Shown: positions 13,574 through 56,102 of the stretch, piece by piece
Numbering within the stretch: the stretch's first letter is position 1
Layout of the letters: every line of letters starts with the position of its first letter
Assembly: GCA_021836725.1 (NCBI GenBank)
Contig: JAKBHL010000006.1
Coordinates: 21,136-85,135, forward strand
DNA from: a bacterium
GTDB taxonomy: Bacteria; Patescibacteriota; Minisyncoccia; Phycocordibacterales; Phycocordibacteraceae
DNA length: 64,000 nucleotides
Direction: 5' to 3'
Program-made: the position numbers and the translations under genes
The notes under the pieces: generated by a model
What the model saw: only the letters and a program-made list of their open reading frames with translations
Told to the model about the DNA's origin: nothing
Databases searched by the model: none

Positions 13574-14540
13574 AAAACACGTTCACAAGACAAAATCTGG
13601 CGGTACCGTCTCCCAATTCATTGAATCAAAGAATTTACCGGCGGATATCCAAATCAGTTCGTTCATAAATTTTGTCCATTTTGGAAGCGAGGTAATTTTG
13701 ACGCCGGACGACGGTACGTCTTGGGGCCCGGTTTCCGGGGAAATAAAAGGGCAAGTGGACTGGAGAAAAGAACTGGTGCGCGAGACAGGTGAAAAGGCCG
13801 GAGTGTTGGTTGATGGTGTGGTCTTGTGCGGATATATTTCAAATGAAAGTAAGGTAGGCGATTCCGATTCCGTTACGACAATCTCTCCCATATGTTATTC
13901 CTATTGTCACGATATTAATCCCACGTGGACTCCGAAAGGAATAATGACGAGAGAACTTTTTTCTCATTCCAATGTTAAGGAACACCTAGCGAAGAGAAAC
14001 GACGAGGGTCAGATGTTAGAACTGTATCTGTATATACACGACCAGTTTAATAGGGATCTGCGCATCGAATTTTCTTTTTTACCCGACGAAATGCCGGATG
14101 TCATATTCGTGACATCGGCAATGGTTTTTTGCATCGATGATGACAATCGAATATGCCTTGTTAAAGACGGTGATGAGGATTTTTATAGTCTACCCGGAGG
14201 AGGTCGTAGGCTTCTCGAATCTCCACTGGAATGTGCAAAGCGGGAACTGCAAGAAGAGGCTCAGATTACCGCGAAGAACTTCAAAATCTTTGGAAGCATA
14301 ATCGTTAGCTTCTATTCAAACGACGTCTTGATCTCTAAGATGCAACAAGCCAGGTATATTTGCGACGTAGATGTTATGGGGGAATTCATTCCTTTCAAAG
14401 ACGGTTTCGAGACGGATGAAAGAATATTCGTTCAGGCGGATCAACTTCTAACACTTGGTAAACAGTTCAAAAATAATAACGGCATCCAAATCGTTGAGCA
14501 TTTAATAAAGATACAACTTGATCGAGAACACAACGCTTGA
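13557..14540 (+). CDS. two-domain protein: unknown N-terminal domain plus C-terminal Nudix hydrolase domain
   Basis: LPGGGRRLLESPLECAKRELQEEAQI matches the Nudix box GX5EX7REUXEEXGU. Confidence 0.6.
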   Translation: MDKLHKKHVHKTKSGGTVSQFIESKNLPADIQISSFINFVHFGSEVILTPDDGTSWGPVSGEIKGQVDWRKELVRETGEKAGVLVDGVVLCGYISNESKVGDSDSVTTISPICYSYCHDINPTWTPKGIMTRELFSHSNVKEHLAKRNDEGQMLELYLYIHDQFNRDLRIEFSFLPDEMPDVIFVTSAMVFCIDDDNRICLVKDGDEDFYSLPGGGRRLLESPLECAKRELQEEAQITAKNFKIFGSIIVSFYSNDVLISKMQQARYICDVDVMGEFIPFKDGFETDERIFVQADQLLTLGKQFKNNNGIQIVEHLIKIQLDREHNA

Positions 14541-21495: not shown

Positions 21496-21652
21496 ATAGG
21501 CACAACAGGCGGGAACTCACCTCGCCCATTTGTTGTCAGATATTAGCAACAATATGAAATATGGACAAGACAGCCACTTACTGAGATGGAGATAATCCAG
21601 GCCGATATTTTTGGTGTCATTTCGGACATCTTCAAAATAGAGTTGTTATAAA

Positions 21653-22045
21653 TTGACAACGATTATCTTTGAACCAAACATCTATCATATGGGTATTAAT
21701 CAGCCGTTCAGAAGAGATAAATTCTATCGTGATCGCGACAGTTACGCCGAATGGTGGACAATTGGGTGTTCTGCGTGTGCTCAAAAAGTGCTTCTCTATC
21801 AAAAAGATGGACACGGTAAATTATATCGTTGCTATCTAAATCGAATTTTTGCTCCATCAGACTATGCAAATCTTCAGTATGATTCAAGATTGACGGTAAA
21901 AAAACTACCCAATCTTGTTTGTGCACACTGTAAGAATCTTCTCGGAATCCCCATGCTTCATTGGGAAGGCAGGCTTGCGTTTCGACTAATCAAAGGACGT
22001 TGGGTAAGACGTAAAGCACAGCAATCCGATGAATGGAAAATCTAA
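21653..22045 (+). CDS. small protein with a four-Cys zinc-ribbon-like motif
   Basis: CSAC...CAHC Cys pairs. Overlaps the next gene by 17 nt. Confidence 0.4.
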   Translation: MTTIIFEPNIYHMGINQPFRRDKFYRDRDSYAEWWTIGCSACAQKVLLYQKDGHGKLYRCYLNRIFAPSDYANLQYDSRLTVKKLPNLVCAHCKNLLGIPMLHWEGRLAFRLIKGRWVRRKAQQSDEWKI

Positions 22046-22748
22046 AGATATAATACGGACTGTACGGAAAATCCTTATTCCAAAGGGGAAGAGGATACAA
22101 GTCGTTGAGTGCGGAGTAAAGAAGTATCTACTCGTCACACGAAAAGGCGTTGGCGCAATTCATACACCATATGGATATTTTTGGCAATATGATTTTCATG
22201 TTAATGATGAATGGGAGAAATATTCTGTCTTAGTACGCGCTTCGCTGAATGGGCAATTCAATCCAGTTTTTACTCGTAAAAACCTGTTGCTCCGCATAGA
22301 TTCTGGATGCGAGACGGGGCAACTCTTTCATGACAACACATGCGAATGTCGTGAACAATTGCATCTAGCATTACAAAGAATTGACGAATACGGAGAAGGG
22401 ATCATTGTGCACATCCCTTCTCAAGATGGGCGTGGTGGTGGGTTGGCTTTCAAGCTTGCAACACTGCTTCTCGAAAAGGATTTGGGGATGGATACGATAG
22501 AAGCCGCACGTGTTCTTACTGACGGGGGCGAAATAGATTTTCGAACCTATGGAGGTGTAGTTGGTATCTTGAAATTCTTCCGCGCCCAGAAAGAAGTATT
22601 TCTTATGACGAACAATCCGCTCAAGATCTCAGCTCTCACTGAAAATAAATATAAAATATCACGCCTAAATATCGTTGTCCCACCAACACGCTTCACTGCT
22701 AGACATTTGCGTGCCAAAGAGCAAGAGCTCGGACATATGCTTTCATGA
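22029..22748 (+). CDS. GTP cyclohydrolase II (RibA)-family protein
   Basis: RIDSGCETGQLFHDNTCECREQLHLALQRIDEYGEGIIVHIPSQDGRGGGLAFK...LMTNNPLKISALTE aligns with the RibA zinc motif CxxGxxxxxxxCxC and the C-terminal LTNNPxK region. Confidence 0.7.
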   Translation: MNGKSKDIIRTVRKILIPKGKRIQVVECGVKKYLLVTRKGVGAIHTPYGYFWQYDFHVNDEWEKYSVLVRASLNGQFNPVFTRKNLLLRIDSGCETGQLFHDNTCECREQLHLALQRIDEYGEGIIVHIPSQDGRGGGLAFKLATLLLEKDLGMDTIEAARVLTDGGEIDFRTYGGVVGILKFFRAQKEVFLMTNNPLKISALTENKYKISRLNIVVPPTRFTARHLRAKEQELGHMLS

Positions 22749-23545
22749 CGGAGCAGTTAACCATTTCGCTGCGGGGATTGTCTGCATCTGGGAAGGGCAC
22801 AATAGCGCCGATTCTTGCAAAAGAACTTAACGTACAGCATATAGATTGCGGACTATTGTTCAGAGCAATAGCGTTGTATATATGCGAACATCAAATTACG
22901 AGCAAACATCTTTTCCTAGAGAAAGTTCGTATTCGAATGATATGCGAAACGGTGTTCATTGTTGAAGAAAAAACATATCCTCGCGAGCAATTGCAAACTG
23001 AAAAGGTCGGATATCTTGCGGCTGAGTTGGCCAAAAGCCACAGCGAACAGCTTGTGTCATTAGTGAATGAACTGCTATCGAGTATGTCGCGAGTTGTCGT
23101 AGATGGGCGAAACGCAGGATTGAATATTCTCCCTAATCCGGACTTTTCTTTTTTCCTTCAAGCAAGTTTGAAGTCGCGTATCCAACGACGGTATGAGCAA
23201 GAAAGGTTTATTAATAAGGAAATAAAGAAATCAGAGATAAAATCTTCTCTCATCAAAAGAGACACTGTTGATCAAAAACGTGACAGAAAGCTCACAGAAC
23301 CCCAATTAAATGAGCACATCATCGTAACAGATGGGAAGACTCCATTACAATGCGCTAGAGAAATTGTCTCCGTAGTCAGAATTAAGACAAAAATGTTGGC
23401 ATGGACTGCAGTAGATAAACATGGAGATTTTTTCACTTATGAAGATGGAACAGTAGTTGTGGTAAGAAATAAGAGCCAGATACCTATCAGAGTGCGAGAA
23501 AGCGAGGAATATTCCGTGGTTAAAATAGAACTCAAGTTTGCGTAA
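22745..23545 (+). CDS. cytidylate-kinase-like P-loop nucleotide kinase with a C-terminal extension
   Basis: ISLRGLSASGKGTIAPILAKELNVQHIDCGLLFRAIAL resembles the Cmk N-terminus (P-loop plus the D.G..YR region). ATGA start/stop overlap with the upstream gene. Confidence 0.55.
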   Translation: MTEQLTISLRGLSASGKGTIAPILAKELNVQHIDCGLLFRAIALYICEHQITSKHLFLEKVRIRMICETVFIVEEKTYPREQLQTEKVGYLAAELAKSHSEQLVSLVNELLSSMSRVVVDGRNAGLNILPNPDFSFFLQASLKSRIQRRYEQERFINKEIKKSEIKSSLIKRDTVDQKRDRKLTEPQLNEHIIVTDGKTPLQCAREIVSVVRIKTKMLAWTAVDKHGDFFTYEDGTVVVVRNKSQIPIRVRESEEYSVVKIELKFA

Positions 23546-23666
23546 TTACCTCTATTGATAGAGACTTCAGTTGAGGGACATCTAGTTAGTCCCTCACCAC
23601 GACTGAGGTTGGCGTTTCTTAAATCGATTATAATGGAACTGTAGAGATTTTTTTAACCCCACGAAT

Positions 23667-24735: not shown

Positions 24736-26334
24736 ATGGGTGCTCTTGCGAATTTTGATCTCTTGTCGGTAGGCGTCGCCATCGCGGGCACGCTCGTGCT
24801 CGGGTTCGTCATTTATTTCACCGATCAGAAGAGTGGTACGAATCGCATCTTTTTCGCGTTCGCGTTCGTCACCGCGATATGGGGCTTGCTCAACTATCTC
24901 AGTTATCGCGTCGAGGATCTATCCGTCGCGTTTGCACTCCTACGTTTCGAACTTGCGCTCGCCGTGTGGCAAACGTTCATAATCTTTCGGCTTCTGCTCA
25001 TCTTCCCGGACCGCGACGATGTACTTCCACGGCGCTATCTGCTCGCGCTTGTCGTGTACGCGGGCGTCGTATCCGTGCTGTGCCTCACGCCATTCGTCTT
25101 TGAGCGCATCACTACAGTTACCGCCACGGGGTATATCAAAGACATAGCCGTCGGGCCGGCAATCGCGCTCTTCGGCGTCACGAGTATAGGGTTCGTCCTT
25201 GCAGGGTGGATAGTGTGCGCCCGGAAGACGTTCCGCCTCAGGGGCGCACAGCGTGCGCAAACGGGTTTCTTCCTGCTCGGGGCGATTGCGATGTTCTTGC
25301 CAATCATCATTCTGAACTTCATCTTTCCAGCATTCTTGCGGGATTCGAGATTCGTTCCGTATGGCGCGGTCTCAATATTCCCGTTCGTGCTGTTCACGTC
25401 TTACGCAATCCTGCGTTTCCATTTGTTCAACATCAAGGTCATTACGACGTCCATACTCGTATTCGTGCTTTCCATCGTTTCATTTGGGCAGATTCTTTTC
25501 TCGGGCACACTGCCTGCGATGCTGTTCCAAGCGAGCGTTTTCATGCTCGTGCTCGTATTCGGCATCAACCTGATCAGGAACGTTATCCGGGAAGTGGAGC
25601 AGCGGGAAAAGATACAGAAACTCGCGAAAGAATTGGAGGAGATCAATAAACGGCAGGAAACACTCATCCACTTCATCGGGCACGAGGTGAAGGGGTTCCT
25701 GACCAAGGCTGAGGGCGCATTCGCGTCGCTTACCGACGGTGATTTTGGCCAGTTGCCTGAGGAACTGAAGCCGTTCGTCGAGCGCTCATTCGCCGAGACC
25801 CGGCAAGGCGTTGGTTCGGTCGAGGACATCCTCAAGGCGTCGAACATCAAGAAGGGAACTGTGGCATACGCCAAAGAGCCATTCGATCTGAAAGCGCTCG
25901 TGACAGAAGCGGTCGAGAAGGCAAAGATGGCGGCCGCCCAGAAAGGTCTTGCGCTTACTCTCGTCGCAGACGACGCGTCGTATCAGATGACTGGCGACAG
26001 AGCGCAAATCAACGACCACGTCCTGCGCAACCTCATCGACAACGCTATCAACTACACGCCATCGGGTTCTATCGTGGTCTCGCTCGCGCACGAGAACGGC
26101 AAGGTCGTCTTCGCCGTGAAAGACAGCGGCATCGGCATCACCGACGAGGACAAACAGCGTCTTTTCACCGAGGGCGGCCACGGCAAGGACTCGCAGACGA
26201 TCAACGTGCACTCCACCGGCTACGGTCTCTACATCGCAAAACAGATTACCGAGGCGATGGGCGGCACGATCCGCGCCGAGTCCGAAGGCGCGGGGCGAGG
26301 GTCTACATTCATCGCGGAATTTCCTGCGGGATAG
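24736..26334 (+). CDS. sensor histidine kinase with multi-pass membrane N-terminal domain
   Basis: About 7 TM helices, H-box HFIGHEVKGF, and an HATPase_c C-terminus GYGLYIAKQITEAMGGTIRAESEGAGRGSTF. Confidence 0.8.
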   Translation: MGALANFDLLSVGVAIAGTLVLGFVIYFTDQKSGTNRIFFAFAFVTAIWGLLNYLSYRVEDLSVAFALLRFELALAVWQTFIIFRLLLIFPDRDDVLPRRYLLALVVYAGVVSVLCLTPFVFERITTVTATGYIKDIAVGPAIALFGVTSIGFVLAGWIVCARKTFRLRGAQRAQTGFFLLGAIAMFLPIIILNFIFPAFLRDSRFVPYGAVSIFPFVLFTSYAILRFHLFNIKVITTSILVFVLSIVSFGQILFSGTLPAMLFQASVFMLVLVFGINLIRNVIREVEQREKIQKLAKELEEINKRQETLIHFIGHEVKGFLTKAEGAFASLTDGDFGQLPEELKPFVERSFAETRQGVGSVEDILKASNIKKGTVAYAKEPFDLKALVTEAVEKAKMAAAQKGLALTLVADDASYQMTGDRAQINDHVLRNLIDNAINYTPSGSIVVSLAHENGKVVFAVKDSGIGITDEDKQRLFTEGGHGKDSQTINVHSTGYGLYIAKQITEAMGGTIRAESEGAGRGSTFIAEFPAG

Positions 26335-26362
26335 ATTCAAGAAATATGACATTCGTGATATA

Positions 26363-26599
26363 ATGAGCAGTATGAGAAATATTATGCAATTTCAGATTTC
26401 TGAAAGCGATGGAGGCTATGTCGCCGAGGGTGTAAGCGTGCCTATTGTTACCCAAGGAGAGACTCTTGATGAACTTGCTTCGAATATTCGCGAAGCAGTC
26501 GGGCTCTATGTAGAAGGTGAAAATCTCGCTGAGCTTGGTTTCGCACCGGCGCCTTCAGTGTTGGTAAATTTCGAGCTTCCCGCATCGGTGCATGCCTAA
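26363..26599 (+). CDS. hicB: HicB-family antitoxin (UPF0150)
   Basis: MQFQISESDGGYVAEGVSVPIVTQGETLDELASNIREAVGLYVEG. Overlaps hicA by 8 nt. Confidence 0.65.
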   Translation: MSSMRNIMQFQISESDGGYVAEGVSVPIVTQGETLDELASNIREAVGLYVEGENLAELGFAPAPSVLVNFELPASVHA

Positions 26600-26834
26600 A
26601 CCAAAGAGGCTTTCAGGGCCGGATATTATTCGGATCTTTGAGACGTTTGGTTTTACAATCGAGAACCAGCGAGGGAGTCACATAAAGCTCTCGCGTCTTG
26701 AATCTGACGAGAAACAAGTACTGCTCATCTCGAATCACAAAGAGCTAAAGACGGGAGCGGTCGTGGGGATATTTAAGCAGGCGACGCGATATGTGGCAGA
26801 ATCGGAACTTCGCGGACATTTCTACACTGAGTAA
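26592..26834 (+). CDS. hicA: HicA-family mRNA-interferase toxin
   Basis: IIRIFETFGFTIENQRGSHIKLSR...KELKTGAVVGIFKQA (YcfA/HicA GSH motif). Confidence 0.65.
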   Translation: MPKPKRLSGPDIIRIFETFGFTIENQRGSHIKLSRLESDEKQVLLISNHKELKTGAVVGIFKQATRYVAESELRGHFYTE

Positions 26835-26844
26835 CCCGTATTAA

Positions 26845-26925
26845 AGCGCACGGCGGCACGATCCGCGCCGAGTCCGAAGGGCAGGGGAAAGGTTCCACCT
26901 TCACCACAGAGTTTCCGGAGGTATA
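26845..26925 (+). repeat. degenerate copy of the histidine-kinase 3' end (second of three)
   Basis: Translates to HGGTIRAESEGQGKGSTFTTEFPEV*. Compare the real C-terminus GGTIRAESEGAGRGSTFIAEFPAG* at 26260-26334. Confidence 0.75.
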
Positions 26926-26960
26926 GAATCAACCCCAAAAGGAAACATCCTATCTGCGAT

Positions 26961-27437
26961 CTATGAAAGCGTTCTGTAGAACGACTCCACTTCACTAATG
27001 AGCATATTCTTCAAATAAAAAATCGGTATTTGCAATGATTCACCGGCATTATGCTCCCATTGACTCCCTATGCTTGTCTCCCACAACGGGAGAAAAACTA
27101 ATCCTGATATTTTCCCCGATTTTAAAATCGGATTGTAGAAGAAATCGAGCAGGGGGTAATCATACTCGTGGTGGTCTCTCAAAATATCGTCCAGTCGTTT
27201 TTCATATGAGACTTGATTGAACACAGATATCCCCCTTCTTTTTGCCGCTTGTATCATGGAATGCAAGCAATCTAGATTTTCTGTCACACTTCCGAGACCA
27301 CCTGTCGAAATCGGTCCGCAAAATTGAATGACCGGAGACTTAAGCCTTGATATTTCCAAGAGCGCTTCCTCCACTAGTTCGGTCAGTTCCTTTTTATACT
27401 TGCTTTCTGTATCTTCGCGTGATTTTTGACTATTCAT
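26961..27437 (-). CDS. hypothetical protein (possible nucleoside 2-deoxyribosyltransferase-like / DUF4406-like fold, low confidence)
   Basis: VIQFCGPISTGGLGS resembles the YLAGP-type motif of that fold. AT-rich. Divergent from the CYTH-domain gene. Confidence 0.4.
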   Translation of the reverse strand: MNSQKSREDTESKYKKELTELVEEALLEISRLKSPVIQFCGPISTGGLGSVTENLDCLHSMIQAAKRRGISVFNQVSYEKRLDDILRDHHEYDYPLLDFFYNPILKSGKISGLVFLPLWETSIGSQWEHNAGESLQIPIFYLKNMLISEVESFYRTLS

Positions 27438-27476
27438 AGCATTTACTATATAGTATACATTGTCCTAATAATATAT

Positions 27477-29078
27477 ATGCTTTCGCTCAAAGAACAGCAG
27501 CGTCGGCTCTCCGTTAACGTTATTAATTACTCACTTGAGGGGATGTGGAGTTCTCACCCACTCATTTCAGAACTCAGAAAAAGGGTTTCTGCTTTTCTGC
27601 CTAAAGAAGGGATTTATGACCCTCAGGATCTTGAACATCAAGCGTTATTCAGGCTAACGACGTTCGACCCAAAAGTCATAAATGACGAGCTCATTCAGTT
27701 TGTTGTCCAAGAGCAATACGAGGTGGTGAAGGATCGCCTGAATAAACTCGATTACGATACGGAGTATCTATTCAGAGGGCTTACGGGGAAATACCACGAC
27801 CTTAATGTAAACGACCGCCTCGAACTGCGATGGGAAAATGAACAACTCATCGCCAAAAATGATCGGCGATCGTTTAATGTCGAATTCCGGACCGTGCATG
27901 ACGAAAACATTGTTTCCCTATTTTCTAACGAACTCCACTATATTCACCAGGACCGGCCCAAGGGAGAGACTTTCGGATTTTATTTCGTCGGCGACACTAT
28001 ACCGTGGGCGATAGAGACAACAGAACCTTCTGCGATTGCAAAGCAGTACAAGAGAGATGCTCTGCTTGCAAATGGGATAGATCCGAACAAAGCCATCGAA
28101 CTCACCCGATTCTACACATTGCCGGGCGCACCAGTAAATGCTATCTCACTGATGGACGGATTGGTGGCAAGACACTACAAACAAAAAGGCATTGAAGCGC
28201 TCTATACAACCACCATGCCGATGTACTCGAAAACGAAAGGGACTACAATAGCGGGTGGCGTCAACAAACCATTACTCGTCAAAGATCTGCGACATAAATT
28301 CATCCCGGAAAAAATAGACGGTAGGATATTCTATCGACACGTGACAACAATCCCGGAAGATCACAAAGAAATCGAAGTTATAAAAACACATCCGAATTTC
28401 CCGACCATGCTTGTTGTCGAAGTCTTCCGCACGTTAAATGATCCAGGATTAAAACCGATTCCCATACTCGAAGACAAGTCAAAGGTTATCTATGTCATCC
28501 AAAGAGACGGCGCGAAGCTTGAAGAAGAGGTCAAGCTCGCCGTGCAAGATATCCCGGCGGTACTCGCGAAAATCCGTTCTGTAGCGAAGTATGTCCGGAC
28601 CGAATACGTACGGGATGTGATCTATGGCACGAAAGATGAGAAAAAGAAGATCCGTCTGCGGATACAGGATAACTTCGAGTTCCGTCTCGTCGACGCCACC
28701 TACAAATATCGTGTAGCGGTCGAAGACGGGGTTAAGAAAGAGATTGAAGAGACCCTCTATAAAGGAAACTCTTGCGAAGATGCTCTGAAATTCATCGCTT
28801 CACAAGGCGACTTCGTCGAGGAGAATTCATATGAAAAAATAAGAACCGTCTTCATCAGCCCTCACGGTACCGAGATTACGCTTGATATCTATCCTTATGG
28901 AGCGTGGGTTGAGATTGAGGGCGAAACCCGCAAGATTCATGACGTCGCGAAACAACTCGGCTTTACACAGAAAGATTACATTGACACGGGTGCGGACGAT
29001 CTTTATCTCGCTTGGATAAAGAAATATAATCTCTCCGAGATGTGGGATGTTCGCTTCGGCTTGAGCGGCAATAAATAG
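27477..29078 (+). CDS. large protein with a C-terminal CYTH-like (class IV adenylyl cyclase / triphosphate-tunnel) domain and an unknown N-terminal region of about 380 aa
   Basis: C-terminal RLRIQDNFEFRLVDATYKYRV...ISPHGTEITLDIYPYGAWVEIEGE fits the CYTH beta-barrel pattern (ExE...K...LD.v.glG.fvEiE). Start placed at the ATG downstream of a TATA-rich promoter-like stretch. Confidence 0.5.
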   Translation: MLSLKEQQRRLSVNVINYSLEGMWSSHPLISELRKRVSAFLPKEGIYDPQDLEHQALFRLTTFDPKVINDELIQFVVQEQYEVVKDRLNKLDYDTEYLFRGLTGKYHDLNVNDRLELRWENEQLIAKNDRRSFNVEFRTVHDENIVSLFSNELHYIHQDRPKGETFGFYFVGDTIPWAIETTEPSAIAKQYKRDALLANGIDPNKAIELTRFYTLPGAPVNAISLMDGLVARHYKQKGIEALYTTTMPMYSKTKGTTIAGGVNKPLLVKDLRHKFIPEKIDGRIFYRHVTTIPEDHKEIEVIKTHPNFPTMLVVEVFRTLNDPGLKPIPILEDKSKVIYVIQRDGAKLEEEVKLAVQDIPAVLAKIRSVAKYVRTEYVRDVIYGTKDEKKKIRLRIQDNFEFRLVDATYKYRVAVEDGVKKEIEETLYKGNSCEDALKFIASQGDFVEENSYEKIRTVFISPHGTEITLDIYPYGAWVEIEGETRKIHDVAKQLGFTQKDYIDTGADDLYLAWIKKYNLSEMWDVRFGLSGNK

Positions 29079-29086
29079 CCTTCGCG

Positions 29087-29160
29087 CACGGCGGCACGAT
29101 CCGCGCCGAGTCCGAAGGGCAGGGCAAGGGCTCGACGTTTATCGCAGAATTTCCTGCTTA
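29087..29160 (+). repeat. degenerate copy of the histidine-kinase 3' end (third of three)
   Basis: Translates to AHGGTIRAESEGQGKGSTFIAEFPA*. Confidence 0.75.
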
Positions 29161-29381
29161 ATTAAACCCATTTTGGCTATGAAATTTTAGAAGTAGAGTT
29201 AATAGATCCTGATTTATTCTTTAGATACATACCGATGTAACGAAAGCGGCGTCACAACAAGAGGGTCCGAGGACTTATTTTGACGCCGTAGTTGAGATAC
29301 CCGTTTCGGAACCGGCCCAAAATCCCAATGACTTGAGCGGGCTTTGCGGCAATCCGCAGAATTGACCACGTTTCCTATTCG

Positions 29382-29416
29382 CAAAACACCCGTCGAATGG
29401 CGGGTGTTTTGCTTTT
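29382..29416 (+). terminator. rho-independent terminator
   Basis: ACACCCG-TCGAATGG-CGGGTGTTTTGCTTTT. Confidence 0.6.
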
Positions 29417-29459
29417 AAGCACCTACCAAGCGTGCTGTCCCGGCGTTATACTTTGATGC

Positions 29460-29687
29460 ATGAATCGAGCGAAATATCGTGGTTCCACAGGTCTCACTGT
29501 GCTCATCATTGTGGCGCTTATCGTTCTCGCGTTCATCTTCTTCGGCCCCGGTTCCGGCTCCAGTTCGTCCTCGAGCCCAAGCAGCATTTCGACGTCGACT
29601 CAACAATTGGTAGGCACGAGCACCGTTTCAAAGGCGCTCCAATTTAGTAACTGGCTCGCAAAAGAGTACGCACCGGCCAAGCACTAG
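29460..29687 (+). CDS. small membrane protein with a Ser-rich tail
   Basis: One TM helix (LTVLIIVALIVLAFIFF) then SGSSSSSSPSS. TATACT box upstream. Confidence 0.35.
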   Translation: MNRAKYRGSTGLTVLIIVALIVLAFIFFGPGSGSSSSSSPSSISTSTQQLVGTSTVSKALQFSNWLAKEYAPAKH

Positions 29688-29750: not shown

Positions 29751-30422
29751 ATGCAAACCGTCCTTATCACCGGTGCGACAAAAGGTATTGGGAAAGCGCT
29801 CGCGCAGAAGTTTCTGCGCGAAGGGTACCGCGTCTTCGCCACTTCGATGGAGGCTTTGGATTACGCGCATGAGGACCTGAAGGTATTTCCTCTTGATCTG
29901 CGTTCGCCAGAGAGCATCGCGGCATGCGCGTCCGAGATCGAGCAGACGCGCATGCCTGTCGACATCCTCATCAACAACGCGGGTGTGCTCCTCGACGAAG
30001 ATGAGACGATGCTCGTTCCGGAAAGGTTGCGCGCGACGCTCGAGGTGAACCTCATCGGAACCGCCGCATTCACCGAGGCGATCCTGCCGTTCGTGAGCGC
30101 GCAGGGAAGCATCGTTATGATCTCTTCGACCGCGGGCTCGCTCGCGCTCGTCGACCACCCCTCCTCCCACTACCCGCGCCACTACCCGGCGTACAAGATC
30201 TCGAAGGCCGCACTCAACATGTACATGCGCACCTTGGCACTGCGCCTCGGTGACACCGGCATCACCGTCTTCTCGGTTCACCCGGGGTGGGTCAGGACGG
30301 ATATGGGCGGCGAAGAGGCGGACCTCGCGCCCGAAGAGGCGGCGGAAGGCCTGTACGAGACGATCATCTCACGCCCGCAAACGGGCGGCTTCTACTTTAA
30401 AAAAGAACGGTTGCCGTGGTAG
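29751..30422 (+). CDS. short-chain dehydrogenase/reductase (SDR)
   Basis: TGATKGIGKA cofactor motif, NNAG, and catalytic YPAYKISK (YxxxK). Confidence 0.85.
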   Translation: MQTVLITGATKGIGKALAQKFLREGYRVFATSMEALDYAHEDLKVFPLDLRSPESIAACASEIEQTRMPVDILINNAGVLLDEDETMLVPERLRATLEVNLIGTAAFTEAILPFVSAQGSIVMISSTAGSLALVDHPSSHYPRHYPAYKISKAALNMYMRTLALRLGDTGITVFSVHPGWVRTDMGGEEADLAPEEAAEGLYETIISRPQTGGFYFKKERLPW

Positions 30423-30573: not shown

Positions 30574-30855
30574 ATGCACCAAGTTGACGTAAATTTGCCC
30601 GTGGTCTTTATTGGAGACAATGACAAAGTCGTTGCGTATACTCCTGCCCTTGATATTTCTACCGTAGGGAAAGACGAGACTGAAGCAAAGGCTCGATTTA
30701 GTGAGATGGTAAATATTTTTTTCGCAGATCTCGTAGAAAATAGCACTATTGATGATGTATTGTCTGAGCTTGGTTGGGTTAAAGAGCAGCAAAAGTGGAA
30801 TCCCCCGGCCATTTCTCAACAATCTATAAATGTAAAGATCTCTGCTTTCGCATAG
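30574..30855 (+). CDS. HicB-like (UPF0150) antitoxin-family protein, orphan
   Basis: VVFIGDNDKVVAYTPALDISTVGKDETEAKARFSEMVNIFF. AT-rich. No hicA partner adjacent. Confidence 0.45.
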   Translation: MHQVDVNLPVVFIGDNDKVVAYTPALDISTVGKDETEAKARFSEMVNIFFADLVENSTIDDVLSELGWVKEQQKWNPPAISQQSINVKISAFA

Positions 30856-31060
30856 TCCATACTTTATGGACAAGATCGGGAAAGTTGATTGGAAACGATT
30901 CGAGAAATTTCTTTTCAAAATTTGTTGAGATTATTAAGAGGCTCTAGCTCCGGGAGCAGGACCATGGGTACATTTCTCGAAGCTTACAGCTTCAGTACAC
31001 CTTGCGGATACATTCGTCGCAGACTCCTCAGTATGCTCGCAAGGTCTTCGAGTCCTGCAC

Positions 31061-31096
31061 GGAAGCGCCCCACGCTTCCTTCCCGTCGCAGTAACA
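31061..31096. repeat. 36-bp direct repeat, copy 1 (GGAAGCGCCCCACGCTTCCTTCCCGTCGCAGTAACA), followed by a terminator-like hairpin and CTGCTCC
   Basis: Identical 36-mer at 34287-34322 next to tRNA-Asn. Confidence 0.8.
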
Positions 31097-31369
31097 AAAA
31101 CACCCGAAAGGGTGTTTTTGTTACTGCTCCCTCTCTATATCGCAAATATACCAATCCTGTTGGATGTAAATATGCTTGCAGATCTCACACAGCGAAGACG
31201 GGTGGTGCGGGGCAGGTGAAAACAGGAACCGCTCAAGCAAACGCGGTGTCTGTTCGAGCGGCGGGCGAATCTTCCCGCGAGTTCGACGGAGACGAAGGGA
31301 CAGACGGTAGTGAATATATTCCAAGACAAAAGATAGAGCCGTCCGACAGAGCGAACGGCTCGCAACCTC

Positions 31370-32128
31370 CTAGTGATTTCCGCTGAAGAAGTCATAAATG
31401 GCGTCAGCAAACACTTCATGAGCTTTTGGCGTCTTTATGCCGTAGAGTCTCCTGAAATCGTGATCTGCCCCTGGTATGACGCGCGTGGACACCTGAGCCT
31501 TTCTGGCATGTGTGCAAATCGCAAAAGAAGATTCTCTTGGCACGACTGTGTCCTCGTCGCCATACAGCAAAAACAACTCGCCGACGAAACGACTCGCTGC
31601 GGCAAATATCGCCTCCGAATCCGACATCGTCGAGATAACAGACTGTTTCGAGCGACCCCGGTTCGAAGGCGGCGCACAGAGCGACAACCTCTGTATCTCC
31701 GGGAACTTCGCCGAAGCCATCAGCGCTACCGTACCGCCAATCGACATTCCGTGTACGTACAAGGCTAATTCCAGCGGGTTGATATTGAAACTCCCTTGAG
31801 CGCGATCTTTTACGTATCGGATGACAGCACATAGGTCATTCAACTCTTCGTCGAAGGTCTTACCCGCAAACGCCGCGGCTCGAGTCTCAAAACTGCTTCT
31901 CGGTGGGAACGAGAATGCGCGAGACGAATTGTAGAACACGACATGACTGACACTTCTTTCAATGAGCAAACCACCGAGCGTGCGAACGCCGCACGCATAC
32001 GCCGGGTCAAACACTCCGAATAATTCGTTACAAATAATCGTTACGGCCGGCGTATACCGCTCTGGAGCATACCAATAGACCTCTACCGGTCTTGGGCGGT
32101 ATGCGCCACCCAGCTGCACAATGTCCAT
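31370..32128 (-). CDS. alpha/beta hydrolase (dienelactone-hydrolase-like)
   Basis: Nucleophile elbow HGMSIGG (GxSxG) and C-terminal GADHDF His region. Confidence 0.6.
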   Translation of the reverse strand: MDIVQLGGAYRPRPVEVYWYAPERYTPAVTIICNELFGVFDPAYACGVRTLGGLLIERSVSHVVFYNSSRAFSFPPRSSFETRAAAFAGKTFDEELNDLCAVIRYVKDRAQGSFNINPLELALYVHGMSIGGTVALMASAKFPEIQRLSLCAPPSNRGRSKQSVISTMSDSEAIFAAASRFVGELFLLYGDEDTVVPRESSFAICTHARKAQVSTRVIPGADHDFRRLYGIKTPKAHEVFADAIYDFFSGNH

Positions 32129-32204
32129 AAGATATCACCTCCACAGTGATGAACCCATAGCGGAGGGTATCACTGCCGAAGAGATAGTCAATCAGATTTG
32201 CTCG

Positions 32205-32924
32205 CTATTTTCCCGTCAACGCAAGGAACCTGGCAAGGGGAGCAGCGCGATCGAATGGTCCGCCTCCTCCATCGATAAAAGCCAGGTTGTGGCTCGCCCC
32301 TGCGAATGTGCAAGTAATGAGCACTCGTGCCTGCTGCGCCGCTGCGATAATCTTATCTTGTGAGGATCGCGGGACTACCGCGTCTTTACCGCCACGGACG
32401 AATATAAACGCGCCCGTGAATCCCGCGAGGTTTTTGAGAAGCACTGCTTCTTCTGGAAGAGTTTGCAGGAGCGGCTTCTCAGTCGCGGGGCTCTTACCGC
32501 AACCGCTGCCGATCATGAGTATCGTCTCTGCACGACGTATGAGCTCGGGGACGCCAAGCACAGTTGTACCGCCGAATGAATTGCCGACGATAATCAGCCG
32601 ATCATCTTCCGTACATACGCCAAGCGCAATAAGCTCTGTATACGCCGCGTGCACATCCTCACATTCTTCGGCAAACGTCTTGCCAATAAATGCATCTGCT
32701 CCGTCCGCATCAGGTAAGCGTGCGGTATTTATGCAGACAATCGTATAAGTATCATTCATGTGCTCGGCCAAACCCGCCTCAAGAGAAGCGTTGTCTTGAG
32801 GATTGTGCACACTATAGAGTCCTTTCAGGAAAAGTATGGTGCCCTGCTTTCCCCCTGTTGCCGGGTAGATGAACAACTCAATGAGTAATTGCTTGAAGGA
32901 GGACTGCAGCGTATGCCTGCGCAT
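32205..32924 (-). CDS. alpha/beta hydrolase (paralog of the adjacent gene; start uncertain)
   Basis: GNSFGG nucleophile elbow and GASHNL. The longer ORF to 33152 would overlap the upstream gene by 170 nt. Confidence 0.5.
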   Translation of the reverse strand: MRRHTLQSSFKQLLIELFIYPATGGKQGTILFLKGLYSVHNPQDNASLEAGLAEHMNDTYTIVCINTARLPDADGADAFIGKTFAEECEDVHAAYTELIALGVCTEDDRLIIVGNSFGGTTVLGVPELIRRAETILMIGSGCGKSPATEKPLLQTLPEEAVLLKNLAGFTGAFIFVRGGKDAVVPRSSQDKIIAAAQQARVLITCTFAGASHNLAFIDGGGGPFDRAAPLARFLALTGK

Positions 32925-32979
32925 CGCGCATACTGTATCACAAAAACCCGGCCGATTGCTCGGCCGGGAATCATCCTGC

Positions 32980-34188
32980 TTAACGGAACTGAGGCACTTC
33001 ACCGCTATCAACCAAAGACACATCATTACCCAGCTGTTCTTGCGCGGATACCGCAAAACGATAAATCGTTTGCGGGAACCATGCGGTATCCCACCCACGG
33101 ATACCACGGTGATACTCACGGACTGCAGCCGCCACGTCGCCATACGTGTCACCGAAGTATCGGCAGAATGCTCTGACCATTCGTGAAAGAAGGTATCGGC
33201 CGATCATTCCGTCAAATACGTGACTGTACTGAGACGCGATTGTCGTACCCTCTTCCTCGCCTGCGATATGTTTATCAAACTCCGGCAGACCAAGTGATCG
33301 CCGAATTGCGCTATCACTGTACGTCCCTTGGAAGTCTCGATAGATCGCTCGACGGATGGTGAGGTCCGGTCCTATCTCTGCGAGTGTGTTCTGACCATGC
33401 AGCTCGGGAAGAATGCCCCGACGCGACATGAGCAGCACCCATGATTCAAGGATCGGTCCAACGATGTCTTTGACGAAGTAATCACGCGGACGACGAGGGG
33501 CATGCAGCTTAGTCATCTGCACTAGTAACGGTTCGTCCGCGGGCGCAAACGGATCTGGTGCGTACAACGAATGGTACGGCATGAGTATCCGTTGTTCCTG
33601 AATCTGAGGAAACGCAATTGTCTCGCGGAACAATACGCCAGATCCTTCATACGTCCCCTGACTCAATACTATGCCGAGCGATTCCGGTAAAAATCCGAAT
33701 CGAACTCCTGCCGGCAATGACACTGCAAAATCACGCAAGTCCGCACAGATGCCGATACTGTGCTCGACCGAACTCCGACGCAGGCGGCGAACGAAGCGAA
33801 AGTGCTTCTTGTCCAGATCCGTTTTGATGTATATGCGCGGTCTTTGTTCTGTGAGCACAGTACGCGTTGAACTCGTCGGTTGCGCCTTGACCGCGCCAGC
33901 AATCTTCAAACCAGGACGCTGTACGTCCGGATGCCAGAAAAACTTATACGACCCGGCAACCTCGACCCAGTTCAGGAGAAACTGTGGAGCTTGAGATTCA
34001 AATACCGCGCAGTTGTGCTTGGACACCAACGCGAATGGGAAAGATATCGTAGCGGTACTCCCTTGCGGATCGTACCTCGGATCCACCTCAGAATAGTCGC
34101 TGAAGTTTCCTTTAGTATCGTTCAGGTACCGTTCTCCATAGATAGTTCGCGTGAGCGGAGCGCCCACGATGATCTGTCGCAGTTCCAT
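32980..34188 (-). CDS. hypothetical protein, possibly IucA/IucC-family or FhuF-like (weak motif match)
   Basis: LPELHGQNTL resembles the HGQN motif of NIS synthetase / FhuF-like C-terminal domains. At 402 aa it is shorter than full IucA/IucC enzymes. Confidence 0.3.
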   Translation of the reverse strand: MELRQIIVGAPLTRTIYGERYLNDTKGNFSDYSEVDPRYDPQGSTATISFPFALVSKHNCAVFESQAPQFLLNWVEVAGSYKFFWHPDVQRPGLKIAGAVKAQPTSSTRTVLTEQRPRIYIKTDLDKKHFRFVRRLRRSSVEHSIGICADLRDFAVSLPAGVRFGFLPESLGIVLSQGTYEGSGVLFRETIAFPQIQEQRILMPYHSLYAPDPFAPADEPLLVQMTKLHAPRRPRDYFVKDIVGPILESWVLLMSRRGILPELHGQNTLAEIGPDLTIRRAIYRDFQGTYSDSAIRRSLGLPEFDKHIAGEEEGTTIASQYSHVFDGMIGRYLLSRMVRAFCRYFGDTYGDVAAAVREYHRGIRGWDTAWFPQTIYRFAVSAQEQLGNDVSLVDSGEVPQFR

Positions 34189-34286
34189 ATTCCTACCCTC
34201 ACAATGTGCTGTTGAAACTGAGGATATCTTTACTATTGTATCGGCGCAATGTCAACGGGTCGTACTGGTTCAGTGTCAGAAGAAAC

Positions 34287-34322
34287 GGAAGCGCCCCACG
34301 CTTCCTTCCCGTCGCAGTAACA
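34287..34322. repeat. 36-bp direct repeat, copy 2, immediately 3' of tRNA-Asn and its terminator hairpin
   Basis: Identical to 31061-31096. Confidence 0.8.
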
Positions 34323-34354
34323 TAAAACCGCCTCGTGGCGGTTTTAGCGTTCTG

Positions 34355-34426
34355 CTCCGGGAGCAGGACTCGAACCTGCAACCAACGCCTTAACAGGGCG
34401 CTGCTCTACCATTGAGCTATCCCGGA
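34355..34426 (-). tRNA. tRNA-Asn (anticodon GTT)
   Basis: Minus-strand cloverleaf TCCGGGA-TA-GCTC-AATGGTA-GAGC-A-GCGCC-CTGTTAA-GGCGT-TGGTT-GCAGG-TTCGAGT-CCTGC-TCCCGGA-G. CCA is not encoded. Confidence 0.85.
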
Positions 34427-38187: not shown

Positions 38188-38481
38188 CTAGTGTTTTTTC
38201 GGGTCAAGCTCCCACCAGAACTTTTTGCTGAAATTTTTTGCCTGGCTGCACACGCTCTTGAGGTAATAGAGATCCGCGGTCGGGATGCCCTCGATTTCTG
38301 CGCCGAGGCGCGCCATCGTAAGCGGAACGAGGCCGTCCTGTTTGCGGGAATAGTTCAGATGACGGAGGAAAAAACGCATCAGTTCTCCGCGCTCCGTCTC
38401 GCGTTTCCGTCCCTTCGGCGCCGCCGCCGCTCTTTTCTCGATATCGGGAAGAATATCGCGGATGGGTTTCATCCCGTTCAT
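38188..38481 (-). CDS. hypothetical protein downstream of murA
   Basis: 97-aa ORF, GC-rich and co-directional with murA. No motif recognised. Confidence 0.35.
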   Translation of the reverse strand: MNGMKPIRDILPDIEKRAAAAPKGRKRETERGELMRFFLRHLNYSRKQDGLVPLTMARLGAEIEGIPTADLYYLKSVCSQAKNFSKKFWWELDPKKH

Positions 38482-38511: not shown

Positions 38512-39831
38512 TCAGTCCGTGTGCGCTTCGATGGACGCGCCGAGGCGTTGGAGGCGCAGGACGATGTCCTCATAGCCCCGGTTGATGCTGTATACGTTCC
38601 GGAGCGTCGAGCGGCCTTTTGCGGCGAGCATCGCGACGAGGATAATGGTCGCGGGCCGCAGCGCCGGCGGGCAGATGACTTCGGCGGCCTTGAGACGGGA
38701 CGGGCCCTCAATCGAGATGCGGTGCGGGTCGTGGAGGATGGTCGTCGCGCCAAGCCGGTCAAGCTCGGTGTAATAAATCGCACGTTTTTCGTACACCCAG
38801 TCGTGGATGAGCGTCATGCCTTTGGCTTGCGTGGCGATGACCGCAAAGAAGGGAAGATTGTCGATATTGAGGCCCGGGTACGGCCGCGCATGGATCTTTT
38901 CGGGGAACGCGATGAGCACGGATGGTTCAACAGTTATGTCGACAAGCTTCGTGATCCCGTTTTCAGAAACGCGCCGATTGGACAGCGAGAACGCAAGACC
39001 CATTTTCTCAAGTACGAGCAATTCGACTTCGAGAAACTCGATCGGCGCGGCGGCGATGGTGATGGCGGAACCGGTCACCGCCGCCGCCGCGAGAAAGAAC
39101 ATCGCATCGGTCGGATCCTCGGCAACGCTGTAGGAGACATCGCGGTCGATAGTGGCGACGCCCTCGATGCGGAGCGTCGTCGAACCGACGCCCTCGACTT
39201 TGACGCCGAGCGCGCGCAAAAAGCCGCACACTTCCTGCACCTGGTAATTTGCCGAGGCATACTTAATGACGCTCGCGCCCTCAATGCGTGCGGCGGCAAA
39301 AATCGCATTGATAGTCGCCGTGTCGCTCGATTCGTACAGAATAACCTCTGCCGGGCGGAGTCCCTCGTACGTGACATGATAATTATCCGAACGCGCTTCT
39401 ATCGCGACGCCGAATTTCTCAAGCGCCATGAGGTGCGGGCGCACGGAACGCAGCCCGAGCGTGCAGCCGCCCGATTGCGGCAATTCAAACTCTTTCAGAG
39501 CGTGGAGTAGGGGACCGATGAACATCAGGATGCTGCGCGTCTTCATCGCGGCGGCGCGGTCGATCGTCTCGAGTGAGAATTTCTGCGGCGGCTCCAGAGA
39601 GACGCTCGTTCCCTGCCATGTCACCGTGACGCCGATGGAACGGAGGACTTCGATGAGACGGTTGACCTCTTCGATTTTCGGCACATGGTCGAGGATCGTC
39701 TGTCCGCGGTTGAGCAGAGAAGCGGCTAGAAGCGCGACCGCGCCGTTTTTCGAGCGGCTCGTCTCCACGCGGCCGTGCAGCTTTTGTCCGCCCTCGATGA
39801 TGAAGTTCATCCCTTCCTGCATGCGGGACAT
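38512..39831 (-). CDS. murA: UDP-N-acetylglucosamine 1-carboxyvinyltransferase MurA
   Basis: MNFIIEGGQKLHGRVETS..., GGCTLGLRSVRPHLMALEKFG (catalytic Cys loop), INRGYEDIVLRLQRLGASIE C-terminus. AAGGTGG RBS before the MSRMQEG start. The longer N-terminal extension in the ORF track was rejected. Confidence 0.85.
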   Translation of the reverse strand: MSRMQEGMNFIIEGGQKLHGRVETSRSKNGAVALLAASLLNRGQTILDHVPKIEEVNRLIEVLRSIGVTVTWQGTSVSLEPPQKFSLETIDRAAAMKTRSILMFIGPLLHALKEFELPQSGGCTLGLRSVRPHLMALEKFGVAIEARSDNYHVTYEGLRPAEVILYESSDTATINAIFAAARIEGASVIKYASANYQVQEVCGFLRALGVKVEGVGSTTLRIEGVATIDRDVSYSVAEDPTDAMFFLAAAAVTGSAITIAAAPIEFLEVELLVLEKMGLAFSLSNRRVSENGITKLVDITVEPSVLIAFPEKIHARPYPGLNIDNLPFFAVIATQAKGMTLIHDWVYEKRAIYYTELDRLGATTILHDPHRISIEGPSRLKAAEVICPPALRPATIILVAMLAAKGRSTLRNVYSINRGYEDIVLRLQRLGASIEAHTD

Positions 39832-39889
39832 AGTACCACCTTGCACCGGGGCTTTGCGCGAGTGCGGAGGGCGCGATACTATACGCACA

Positions 39890-55553: not shown

Positions 55554-56102
55554 TCAGTTGGGCACCGTGCACGTCCCGCCAAAAGAGATAGCAAAAGCAT
55601 AGTCATCACCAAGCCCGTTATAGATGGTGTCGGGCGACGAGATTCCAGATCCGGCACCGCTATTGATATTGCCGTCAAGGATACCATCCGGTCCAGCGGA
55701 GTACACCATGTCATAGCGGCACGGTTCGGCTGGAATCTCACCTTCATTTTCATCCAGGGTGTAGGGATTGCCCCACGGGTCAACCGGCGGCGTTTTAAAC
55801 CCAATTTTCGCCCAGCTGGAAGCATTTGTTGCCAATGCCGCCGTTTGCGATTTCATCGTTTGGGTCGTATTAAAAGCGCAATCGGTACACCAATTGCCAG
55901 TAAGAGTCCCGAGCGTGGTGACTCGAGTCATATCTATCTGTATTTCTATGCTATGTGCGTCCGCCTGCAATTTAGCAATCTGTCCTTTTTGTCGAGCGGT
56001 GTTCAATGCAGCAAGCACTACCGAAGATAGCAGGCCGATGATGGCGATGACAACGAGGAGCTCGATGAGAGTAAATCCTTTCGTAATCGAAAAACGCGTC
56101 AT
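55554..56102 (-). CDS. type IV pilin / pseudopilin with prepilin N-methylation motif
   Basis: MTRFSITKGFTLIELLVVIAIIGLLSSVVLAAL carries a class III signal (G/FTLIE). Confidence 0.75.
   Translation of the reverse strand: MTRFSITKGFTLIELLVVIAIIGLLSSVVLAALNTARQKGQIAKLQADAHSIEIQIDMTRVTTLGTLTGNWCTDCAFNTTQTMKSQTAALATNASSWAKIGFKTPPVDPWGNPYTLDENEGEIPAEPCRYDMVYSAGPDGILDGNINSGAGSGISSPDTIYNGLGDDYAFAISFGGTCTVPN

Follow-up and report, generated by a model that had tools for sequence, protein, structure and literature searches.

How does a bacterium gain genes at one and the same place, time after time, when nothing resembling a recombinase gene lies nearby? The question is raised by the end of a single gene in an ultra-small bacterium, one of the Paceibacteria of the candidate phyla radiation (CPR), of whose genome a stretch of 64 kb was inspected; that whole stretch is called the window here. 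In it, the gene for a sensor histidine kinase (HK) is followed by two small cassettes, and the last 75 nucleotides (nt) of its coding sequence occur three times, once as the working end of the gene (copy 1, c1) and once behind each of the cassettes (copies 2 and 3, c2 and c3). The HK 3′ terminus is an insertion hotspot and not the debris of paralogous genes. As to the manner of insertion, we lean, without great assurance, towards a homology-anchored serial displacement that does without a recombinase and of which the window would display three rounds. The issue reaches beyond one gene. CPR, or Patescibacteria, genomes are tiny and have few recognisable transposons, integrases and plasmids, and how they gain genes is poorly understood.

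Three copies of a kinase gene end

A repeat search gives one family of 81 nt, the other two copies of which are 80% and 75% identical to the reference copy (coordinates of these and other features are in the table). Over the 75 coding nt the identities are 77-84%, namely 58/75 for c1 and c2, 59/75 for c1 and c3 and 63/75 for c2 and c3, and an exact 29-nt core, GGCGGCACGATCCGCGCCGAGTCCGAAGG, has three occurrences, compared with none in 100 shuffles. By these two tokens the threefold presence of a terminus of about 75 bp, proposed in an initial annotation of the window, is borne out, and the translations quoted there for the three ends match.

Features of the HK locus and of the nearby tRNA-Asn locus, in window coordinates (aa, amino acids)
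Feature	Position	Strand	Basis
Sensor histidine kinase gene, 532 aa, 7TM sensor and HATPase_c; conserved anchor gene	24736..26334	+	Pfam HisKA_7TM, HATPase_c
Homologous-recombination breakpoint inside HK, at the border of the transmembrane and cytoplasmic parts	25500..25560	.	sliding identity
Copy 1, the functional HK 3′ end: AMGGTIRAESEGAGRGSTFIAEFPAG, stop and 6 nt; gene stop at 26334	26254..26340	+	repeat search, alignment
hicB-like gene for an antitoxin of 75-78 aa, at the head of cassette 1	26363..26599	+	Pfam HicB_lk_antitox, weak, E 0.014
hicA toxin gene (predicted), 80 aa	26592..26834	+	Pfam HicA_toxin, E 4.9e-12
Copy 2, untranslated orphan HK end: AHGGTIRAESEGQGKGSTFTTEFPEV and stop; coding part to 26925	26846..26932	+	repeat search, alignment
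Gene for 158-aa protein, which opens cassette 2 and diverges from the 533-aa gene	26961..27437	-	DUF4406 hint, weak, E 0.12
Gene for 533-aa protein: uncharacterised N-terminal ~350 aa and predicted C-terminal CYTH/triphosphate-tunnel metalloenzyme domain	27477..29078	+	AlphaFold, Foldseek
Copy 3, orphan HK end, probably the oldest: AHGGTIRAESEGQGKGSTFIAEFPA and stop; coding part to 29160	29084..29175	+	alignment, including L001
Remnant of the 3′ end of a ChaN/Tiki-like gene (cassette X)	29234..29336	+	L001 13291-13393, 85%
Duplicated tRNA-Asn flank: 42-nt repeat, hairpin and first 7 nt of the tRNA 3′ end	31059..31130	+	direct repeat
Second flank copy (34285-34353) and intact tRNA-Asn (34354-34426)	34285..34426	-	direct repeat

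Neither copy 2 nor copy 3 has a start codon, and each is preceded, at 12-18 nt, by an in-frame stop; being therefore untranslated relics, they are called orphans below. Both begin at the same nucleotide, at GCGCAC, 75 nt before the stop. What follows is a mosaic: the first 41 nt of the two are identical, the last 34 are divergent, and all 12 mismatches are confined to those last 34 of the 75 nt (P = 2e-5). The nature of the differences is telling. In codons, c2 and c3 differ by eight synonymous and three nonsynonymous changes (P = 0.0002, this and the other such values being set against random mutation), with six consecutive third-position changes in GKGSTF, and c1 and c3 also by eight and three (P < 0.0002). 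Differences so dominated by synonymous changes mean that the orphans became different at a time when each belonged to a working HK gene, i.e., they are displaced ends of different alleles, and the mosaics mean that crossovers or conversion tracts end inside the repeat.

Might the array be an artefact of assembly, paralogous HK genes having been wrongly joined? Though this had been named in the initial annotation as something that would tell against its proposal, at least eight assemblies (k141), each of another sample from one study, contain contigs that run through all three copies and are 99.9-100% identical, and exact repeats in the array reach 41 nt at most. With at least eight independent assemblies giving the same structure, mis-assembly is excluded. 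Public short-read assemblies made with k=31 do break at the 41-nt identity of c2 and c3, in 4-5 samples each for the contigs L060 and L061, and these contigs mimic a circular cassette. An excised circle was indeed considered for these two Logan contigs (26846/26857-29113, ends overlapping by 30 nt) and discarded, as a k=31 assembler yields exactly that at a 41-nt repeat.

Empty and occupied sites among relatives

Is it insertion that separates the copies, or are they relics of tandem HK paralogues of which most has been deleted? The synonymous bias just described would suit such relics, each copy having once been part of a functional HK. HK orthologues are present across Paceibacterota, and 20 distinct lineages of them with usable downstream sequence were compared, all being Paceibacterota/Kaiserbacteria-type CPR metagenome-assembled genomes (MAGs). 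In some (L006-L009, L035) the site is empty: the HK stop codon lies 12-117 nt from the tRNA-Met of a conserved tRNA-Met/Asp/Thr cluster, and in occupied loci the gap from HK to tRNA-Met is 1.4-4.3 kb. (Synteny with a tRNA-Asn, suggested by a 55-nt BLAST match in L005, L006 and L008, was dropped, since ARAGORN shows the tRNA-Met/Asp/Thr cluster there.) No second full-length HK, nor an HK fragment longer than about 120 nt, is present in any related locus; the tandem full-length paralogs upstream of the copies that the initial annotation had allowed for are seen in no relative. The intervening genes differ in every lineage, and the orphans abut unrelated cassettes. The lack of a second HK or long HK fragment in any locus refutes descent from paralogues, and that account, together with the mis-joining of paralogous genes, is hardly credible. 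The proposal that insertions occurred at the HK 3′ end, twice or more in succession, has accordingly stood the recommended comparison with related genomes, which show empty sites or other cassettes.

Orphan HK ends occur in seven of the 20 lineages, nine orphans in total. The window has hicBA and then the pair of genes for the 158-aa and 533-aa proteins (the 158/533 pair). Its closest relative, L001 (JAJYCP010000001), with an HK protein 87% identical, has a cassette termed X. Pfam matches characterise the five others, which are more distant Paceibacteria with one or two orphans each: an MA-type peptidase in L026; UPF0150/HicA followed by DUF6922/AbiEii in L032; a CMP-sugar synthetase, a HAD hydrolase and a citrate-synthase-like gene in L033; MNT/HepT in L037; and a decayed AbiEii fragment in L005. 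The inserts are 0.5-3 kb long, and beyond the last orphan there are further toxin-antitoxin (TA) pairs (DUF6922/AbiEii, MazEF). TA genes dominate the cargo in relatives, as was foreseen for a hotspot of this kind. Across at least seven lineages and several co-occurring strains, the locus can be seen empty, singly or doubly occupied, or decayed, and its main value is as such a natural series for working out a mechanism of gene gain.

All nine orphans finish at the stop codon. Their starts are another matter, being at positions 8, 15, 28, 33, about 56-62 (three) and 77 (two) of the profile, which is about 35-120 nt before the stop. The search for a core crossover sequence by aligning the copies, also recommended at the outset, therefore has a divided outcome: the exact 29-nt core is there in the window, and two orphans of other lineages are entirely without it. 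Within the clade of the window and L001 the boundary is constant to within 3 nt, the left boundary of the L001 orphan being that close to the one shared by both window orphans. An orphan begins 5-20 nt after the preceding stop codon in five of eight cases.

Could each repeat instead be the footprint of a true insertion that made a long duplication of its target, in which a staggered break led to 35-120 nt of the recipient being copied on both sides, with divergence afterwards? Repeat pairs are near-identical in L001 (64/64), L026 (97/99) and L084 (95%), mobility genes are absent, and the variable lengths are as reported for restriction-modification (RM) genes (PMC2853133). However, diverged functional alleles are what is found in the window, L032, L033 and L037. 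There the differences are mainly synonymous and in blocks (seven synonymous to two nonsynonymous in L033, P = 0.0004; P = 0.002 in L032; P = 0.016 in L037), which neutral decay of an orphan cannot give; L033 has the mosaic pattern of the window, with mismatches toward the end, and L037 the reverse. Such synonymous dominance points to recombination with a donor copy rather than to fill-in of a staggered cut. In addition, c1 and c2 are HK-end-like in codons and flank past the duplicated block, the last codons and 3′ flank of c1 (GCGGGATAGATTCAA) matching the end of the L001 orphan, so the incoming DNA carried HK-derived sequence; and c3, as described below, resembles the functional end of L001 more than that of its own genome. 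The duplication of recipient sequence is on this evidence quite improbable. One element of the initial annotation, that an incoming unit carries its own copy of the gene end, is by the same mostly synonymous differences upheld. The test also has a general use, in that it constrains mechanism: the repeats can be different functional alleles.

A unit of orphan plus DUF6922/AbiEii pair in L032 (12841-13883) is 77% identical to its counterpart in L037 (2752-3793), and the HK genes of these two lineages are 73% identical. Orphan-plus-cassette units hence persist, or are renewed, over long evolutionary distances, and the open, HK-like frame kept in the L032/L037 orphan is a hint that gene conversion, with the functional end as its source, is still going on.

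Routes by which the cassettes may have come

What occupies the site in the closest relative? L001 is without hicBA and without the 158/533 pair, and has two HK-end copies, identical in 64/64 nt, around cassette X, which consists of an ATP-grasp-like and a ChaN/Tiki-like gene. Window 29084-29175, i.e., copy 3, corresponds at 89% to L001 11519-11612, which is the functional HK end of that genome with its 3′ flank: of 75 positions, only four differ, all synonymously (71/75 identical), compared with 59/75 identity to the window's own functional end. Behind copy 3 there is the remnant of X listed in the table, fused directly to the end of a homologue of a 96-aa gene (window 29336-29686 corresponds to L001 14122-14468). 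Judged from these alignments, copy 3 is in all probability the former functional end of an L001-like allele. The c3 end is tied to cassette X in both genomes, so the right-hand end has kept its link with the cassette behind it. Copy 1 at the working end of the gene (26261-26340) corresponds, at 87.7%, to the orphan copy of L001 (13701-13780).

A second trace of recombination is inside the HK gene itself. Sliding identity of the window HK to L001 is 92-96% as far as about 25,500 and 65-88% thereafter. To variant B (L052/L076), which co-occurs with the window strain, the shift is the opposite: for L076 it is 40-67% upstream and 98-100% from about 25,550, a match that spans the whole cassette array and runs to at least 39 kb. 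By megablast, 99.9% identity begins at 25549. On a larger scale, identity between variant B and the window is 99.5% over 1-12.3 kb and 25.5-39 kb, and at 18.3-25.5 kb variant B has a block of divergent alleles, about 7 kb long. The opposite shifts near 25.5 kb mean a homologous crossover inside the HK gene, and the window HK is a chimera with an L001-like 5′ part and a variant-B-like 3′ part. The backbone of the window species is 85-92% identical to that of L001 on either side of the array, and copy 3, at 95%, is backbone-like in this respect; the 3′ half of HK, at only about 76%, is more foreign than the backbone.

The reading to which these findings incline us can be put as follows. DNA of related Paceibacteria would pair with the conserved HK coding sequence, with the left crossover anywhere in HK, and would bring its own functional HK 3′ end and the genes downstream of it (hicBA or the 158/533 pair). 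On the right, the join would be made in the terminal 35-120 nt of the resident HK, so that the resident end, not being replaced, would be pushed downstream as an untranslated orphan. The newest cassette would then be the one beside HK, hicBA, followed by the 158/533 pair and by the remnant of the older X. The founder orphan would stem from one rare illegitimate join and from then on be a portable right-hand homology arm, with later gain, exchange and loss by ordinary homologous recombination, whether of linear DNA from relatives by unequal double crossover or of loop-out circles that re-enter by a single crossover. A reusable arm of this sort would make boundaries common within a clade and different between clades, and exchange by linear DNA or re-entering circles would give identical blocks of 29-64 nt and mosaic copies. 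Uptake would presumably be by natural transformation, which presupposes that CPR bacteria are naturally competent, and the only competence-related content of the window is a pilin-like gene (55554-56102). Addictive TA cargo may be what stabilises the arrays, which would persist as loss by repeat-mediated deletion would be costly.

Several points weigh against serial displacement. If the joins were independent and illegitimate, the identical start of c2 and c3 and the near-identical start in L001 would be coincidence; to account for a shared boundary, the extra assumption is needed of a founder orphan spread by homologous recombination, and a fixed site-specific crossover explains the within-clade boundary more simply. 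The tight packing, with the short distance from stop codon to orphan in five of eight cases, is more cassette-like than random joins would be. Right-hand homology blocks of 29-64 nt are near the lower limit for RecA-dependent recombination. In L079, hicBA is followed by only 16-17 nt of orphan before unrelated DNA. The breakpoint in HK shows that recombination occurred there, but does not tell which side was imported. Finally, the search for recombinases covered 64 kb of the genome, and a trans-acting enzyme may be encoded elsewhere.

Such an enzyme is at the heart of the model in the initial annotation, according to which these are integrase-less cassettes, comparable to those of cis-mobilizable elements (CIMEs) or integrons, moved in trans by a site-specific recombinase for which the HK 3′ end is attB and of which the cassettes carry an attP-like copy. 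Several points speak for it. Direct repeats bracket every cassette, copies within a genome have an exact block of 29-41 nt in common, the cassettes are tight, from stop to stop, the left boundaries of c2 and c3 coincide with each other and nearly with that of L001, and the mosaic copies resemble attL/attR hybrids. In L079 the only sequence that follows hicBA before the unrelated DNA is GCGCACCGCGGCACGA, as if cut at a defined point.

Where, however, is the recombinase? The statement that no integrase is present held up: Pfam and open reading frame (ORF) searches of the whole window (Pfam was precomputed for 0-39 kb, and the ORFs of 40-64 kb were run separately) revealed no tyrosine or serine recombinase and no transposase. 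The further suggestion that one might be found beside other copies of the HK end came to nothing, there being no recombinase in about ten cassettes of seven lineages and no integrase-bearing element at the HK end in 20 HK loci. When the ORFs of 120 aa or more in the window and the first 51 loci were screened, crudely, with regular expressions for motifs of tyrosine and serine recombinases, one match came up, in the unrelated and distant L051. In viral contigs the core pattern, exact or near-exact, has no matches, and the cassette region has no match in phage and plasmid collections. The rest of the window is housekeeping in character (MreB/C, penicillin-binding proteins, a Mur ligase, aminoacyl-tRNA synthetases, DnaB, RecR and RmuC).

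Nor do the repeats look like substrates. Aligned across lineages, the copies have no nucleotide conservation, and no motif, beyond what coding requires; DNA folds of all three window copies, on both strands, gave no attC-like structure (z-scores of -0.91 to +0.61), and a terminator-like structure in the repeat is not supported. The orphan boundaries range over 35-120 nt between lineages, two orphans have no core, and the hicBA family also occurs between duplicates, 101 nt long, of the 5′ end of an unrelated gene, as described below, an arrangement which an HK-specific enzyme would not bring about. With the breakpoint in HK added to these, the proposal of a site-specific element with attL and attR is not supported, and movement in trans by a recombinase is doubtful, if still the most serious competitor of serial displacement.

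Bolder, and rather unlikely in our estimation, is the suggestion that the orphan ends are not just scars but working parts of a cassette-exchange platform, either recombinase-free or served by a recombinase of unrecognised type, in which the gene terminus and the orphans are paired homology arms. If true, CPR bacteria, largely without conventional mobile elements and dependent on DNA uptake, would have in it a means to capture, stack and swap TA and accessory cassettes. In function such a platform would amount to an 'integron without an integrase', and it would perhaps be the general mechanism behind insertion with long target duplication.

Cargo, other targets and known systems

What do the cassettes carry? 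The two gene pairs predicted in the initial annotation are where it placed them. Between copies 1 and 2, the hicA and hicB genes, which overlap by 8 nt, the hicA stop being 11 nt before copy 2, correspond by their sequences to the description of a HicAB type II TA pair, with a HicA domain and a small adjoining gene of HicB type, so HicA is a predicted toxin. It has 82 homologues, most of them from Patescibacteria, and hicB-hicA pairs homologous to that of the window are found in L079-L085. Between copies 2 and 3, the divergent 158/533 pair ends 5 nt before copy 3 with the stop of the 533-aa gene. For the CYTH-like domain that was expected in the 533-aa protein there is no Pfam match, but structure prediction supports the fold: in an AlphaFold model of pLDDT 87, about residues 345-533 match triphosphate tunnel metalloenzyme/CyaB structures by Foldseek (TM 0.72-0.77, E 8e-9 to 1e-5), the best match being 7ns9 (E 8e-9, TM 0.76) and the class IV adenylate cyclase 2fjt being among the others. 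The C-terminal part thus has, in the model, the eight-stranded tunnel of the CYTH/triphosphate-tunnel fold. That both inserts are richer in AT than HK was also correct, the GC content being 0.55-0.60 in HK, 0.47-0.50 in hicBA and 0.40-0.48 in the second cassette.

More than 150 homologues of the 533-aa protein occur in Parcubacteria, some of them named adenylate cyclase class IV or CYTH. As a pair, the two genes are conserved in over 150 Parcubacteria, with identities of 42-85% and about 100 invariant positions, mostly in the uncharacterised N-terminal 350 aa, and the 158-aa gene accompanies the 533-aa gene in all of L062-L064. In L062 (9496-11602) the pair is 85% identical in aa and 73% in nt, and there it has a different context, without HK-end flanks; nucleotide homology with the window (26962-29077) runs exactly from stop to stop. 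PADLOC gave nothing for five cargo proteins, and among viral contigs the family of the 533-aa protein has a single distant match (34%), which is uninformative. It would seem that the pair is a functional module spread through the lineage, and not a defence system.

Is the geometry peculiar to the HK gene? It is not. Contigs from Hainich groundwater (L080-L082) and a Kaiserbacteria MAG (L084) have homologues of hicBA, with a nt identity of 76% that is limited to the coding region, and there these homologues are inside a direct duplication of 101-102 nt, 85-95% identical, of the 5′ end of a gene for a 97-aa protein (L081 990-1693; L084 5652-6358). The left duplicate keeps the native promoter or the overlap with the upstream gene and stops after 34 codons, being called as a 34-aa ORF; the right one begins exactly at the ATG and is full length. 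For this insertion it is the window that has the empty site (38481/38512), with the EPSP synthase gene (38512-40119) and then the 97-aa gene (38188-38481), a conserved gene that sits between EPSP synthase and def/fmt. In L083 and L085, hicBA homologues have plain intergenic positions without repeats.

A further target is tRNA-Asn. Here an insert of 3.2 kb (31131-34284), with two alpha/beta-hydrolase genes and an IucA/IucC-like gene, has a duplicated flank of about 70 nt, within which the direct repeat 31059-31100/34285-34326 is 98% identical; L001 has a single copy. Rfam over 20-40 kb gave tRNA only.

How does the HK array compare with systems already known? Insertion with long target duplication is said to have been described for RM gene units by Nobusato et al. 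2000 (Gene 259:99), and sequential displacement of C-terminal ends into arrays at rhs and cdiA loci reportedly by Jackson 2009 and Koskiniemi 2014. RM units are flanked by duplications that are long and variable, about 100 bp, lack mobility genes and have mostly naturally competent hosts, and the mechanism has gone unexplained (PMC2853133; PMC3874152). The HK locus resembles them (Furuta, Abe & Kobayashi 2010) in the small, addiction-type unit, the lack of transposase and integrase, the long variable direct repeats, both of which align to a single-copy target in empty-site genomes, and also in the overlap with a gene 3′ end, which is frequent for the RM repeats. The definition of Furuta 2010 asks for an empty site, repeats longer than 30 bp, an insert below 20 kb without mobility genes, and R and M genes. 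At HK there are an empty site, repeats that measure 75-81 nt in the window and, among relatives, 35-120 nt, and inserts of such size without mobility genes, but in place of R and M genes the cargo is HicAB, MNT/HepT, AbiE-like, MazEF-adjacent, the CYTH pair, ATP-grasp or peptidase. The HK locus differs, too, in being iterated at one terminus into an array, in many lineages, in a CPR host, and in that several loci have different functional alleles and not copies of recipient sequence. A circle with short homology that enters by a single crossover can also give duplications, of 109-950 bp (PMC3240628).

The arrays of type VI secretion system (T6SS) effectors and immunity genes have been explained by homology-facilitated illegitimate recombination and displacement (PMC5361080). 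As in these and the Rhs and CdiA arrays, a conserved main gene is the homologous anchor at HK, orphan 3′ fragments are present, there is no integrase, and an incoming module with a new 3′ end and downstream genes would push the old end and its partners distally. Unlike them, the displaced tips are not polymorphic toxin domains with immunity genes; they encode nearly the same HATPase_c peptide, so there is no selection for diversification of the main protein. The orphans, moreover, are just 12-40 codons long and untranslated, and the cargo is unrelated to the anchor gene. The architecture combines these two known kinds, long-target-duplication insertion and C-terminal displacement arrays, in a new setting across CPR lineages. 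It extends the former to TA modules and to a new phylum, and links it to the displacement arrays of polymorphic toxins.

Tandem elements behind the 3′ end of a housekeeping gene are familiar from the CIMEs beside ICESt1/ICESt3 at fda and from the composites of pseudo staphylococcal cassette chromosome (psi-SCC) elements and SCCmec at rlmH (orfX). Each such element is bounded by a direct repeat of the gene end, and some, like those of the HK array, are without a recombinase. Their repeats, at 15-27 bp, are short and the crossover is fixed, and elements that bear an integrase or Ccr occupy the same site in related strains; for the HK array neither a fixed crossover nor a cognate integrase element was found in the 20 HK loci, the window and the roughly ten cassettes. 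Integron arrays are similar in their compact, TA-rich cassettes of one or two genes, the newest by the fixed end and a repeat after each. They differ in that there is no intI beside the HK array, its repeats are direct coding copies and not imperfect palindromes, and its cassettes have their own promoters and include divergent genes.

Some further observations concern the surroundings. On the 5′ side of the array are a nitroreductase-like gene, genes for cytidylate kinase and GTP cyclohydrolase II, and TrmB regulators. An islet of low GC content there (21650-23600; 0.37-0.44) comprises a 130-aa ORF, the GTP cyclohydrolase II-like gene and the cytidylate-kinase-like gene; in its place L001 and variant B have a UCP032817-like gene and a peptidase S15/S9 gene, and it is the third variable spot within 15 kb. 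On the other side, the window has an extra 1.26 kb with respect to L001 (29690-30946), between a gene for a 75-aa membrane protein and a duplicated tRNA fragment, consisting of a short-chain dehydrogenase gene (29751-30422) and a low-GC 93-aa ORF (30574-30855) without a family match. The tRNA-Asn hotspot is oriented towards that of HK. Of tRNA-Asn, the final 16 nt have a duplicate at a distance of 3.4 kb (30947-30962 and 34354-34369), which L001 has also (14483-14500). Beyond tRNA-Asn, strains of the window and L001 lineages carry one of three alternatives, which are the housekeeping genes of the window, a 382-aa protein with a type I RM system, or an AlwI-type RM system with two methyltransferases (L053 16932-21602, L068 12721-17599, L067 13454-17599). 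The 382-aa protein by tRNA-Asn (L053, L068) was considered as an integrase and set aside, having neither a Pfam match nor a PDB sequence match.

Lastly, the 671-nt contig L079, from the same study, has (1-671) a 92%-identical hicBA and, upstream of it, a degenerate HK-like end without a stop codon. It illustrates a practical point: orphan ends break short-read assemblies, and can be mis-called as small ORFs or joined to neighbours, as with the HicB of L079, called as 111 aa. The ends of this contig are perfect GC-rich hairpins, CACTTGGAAG-TTCA-GCTTCCAAGTG and CGGTGGAAGT-CCG-ACTTCCACCG.

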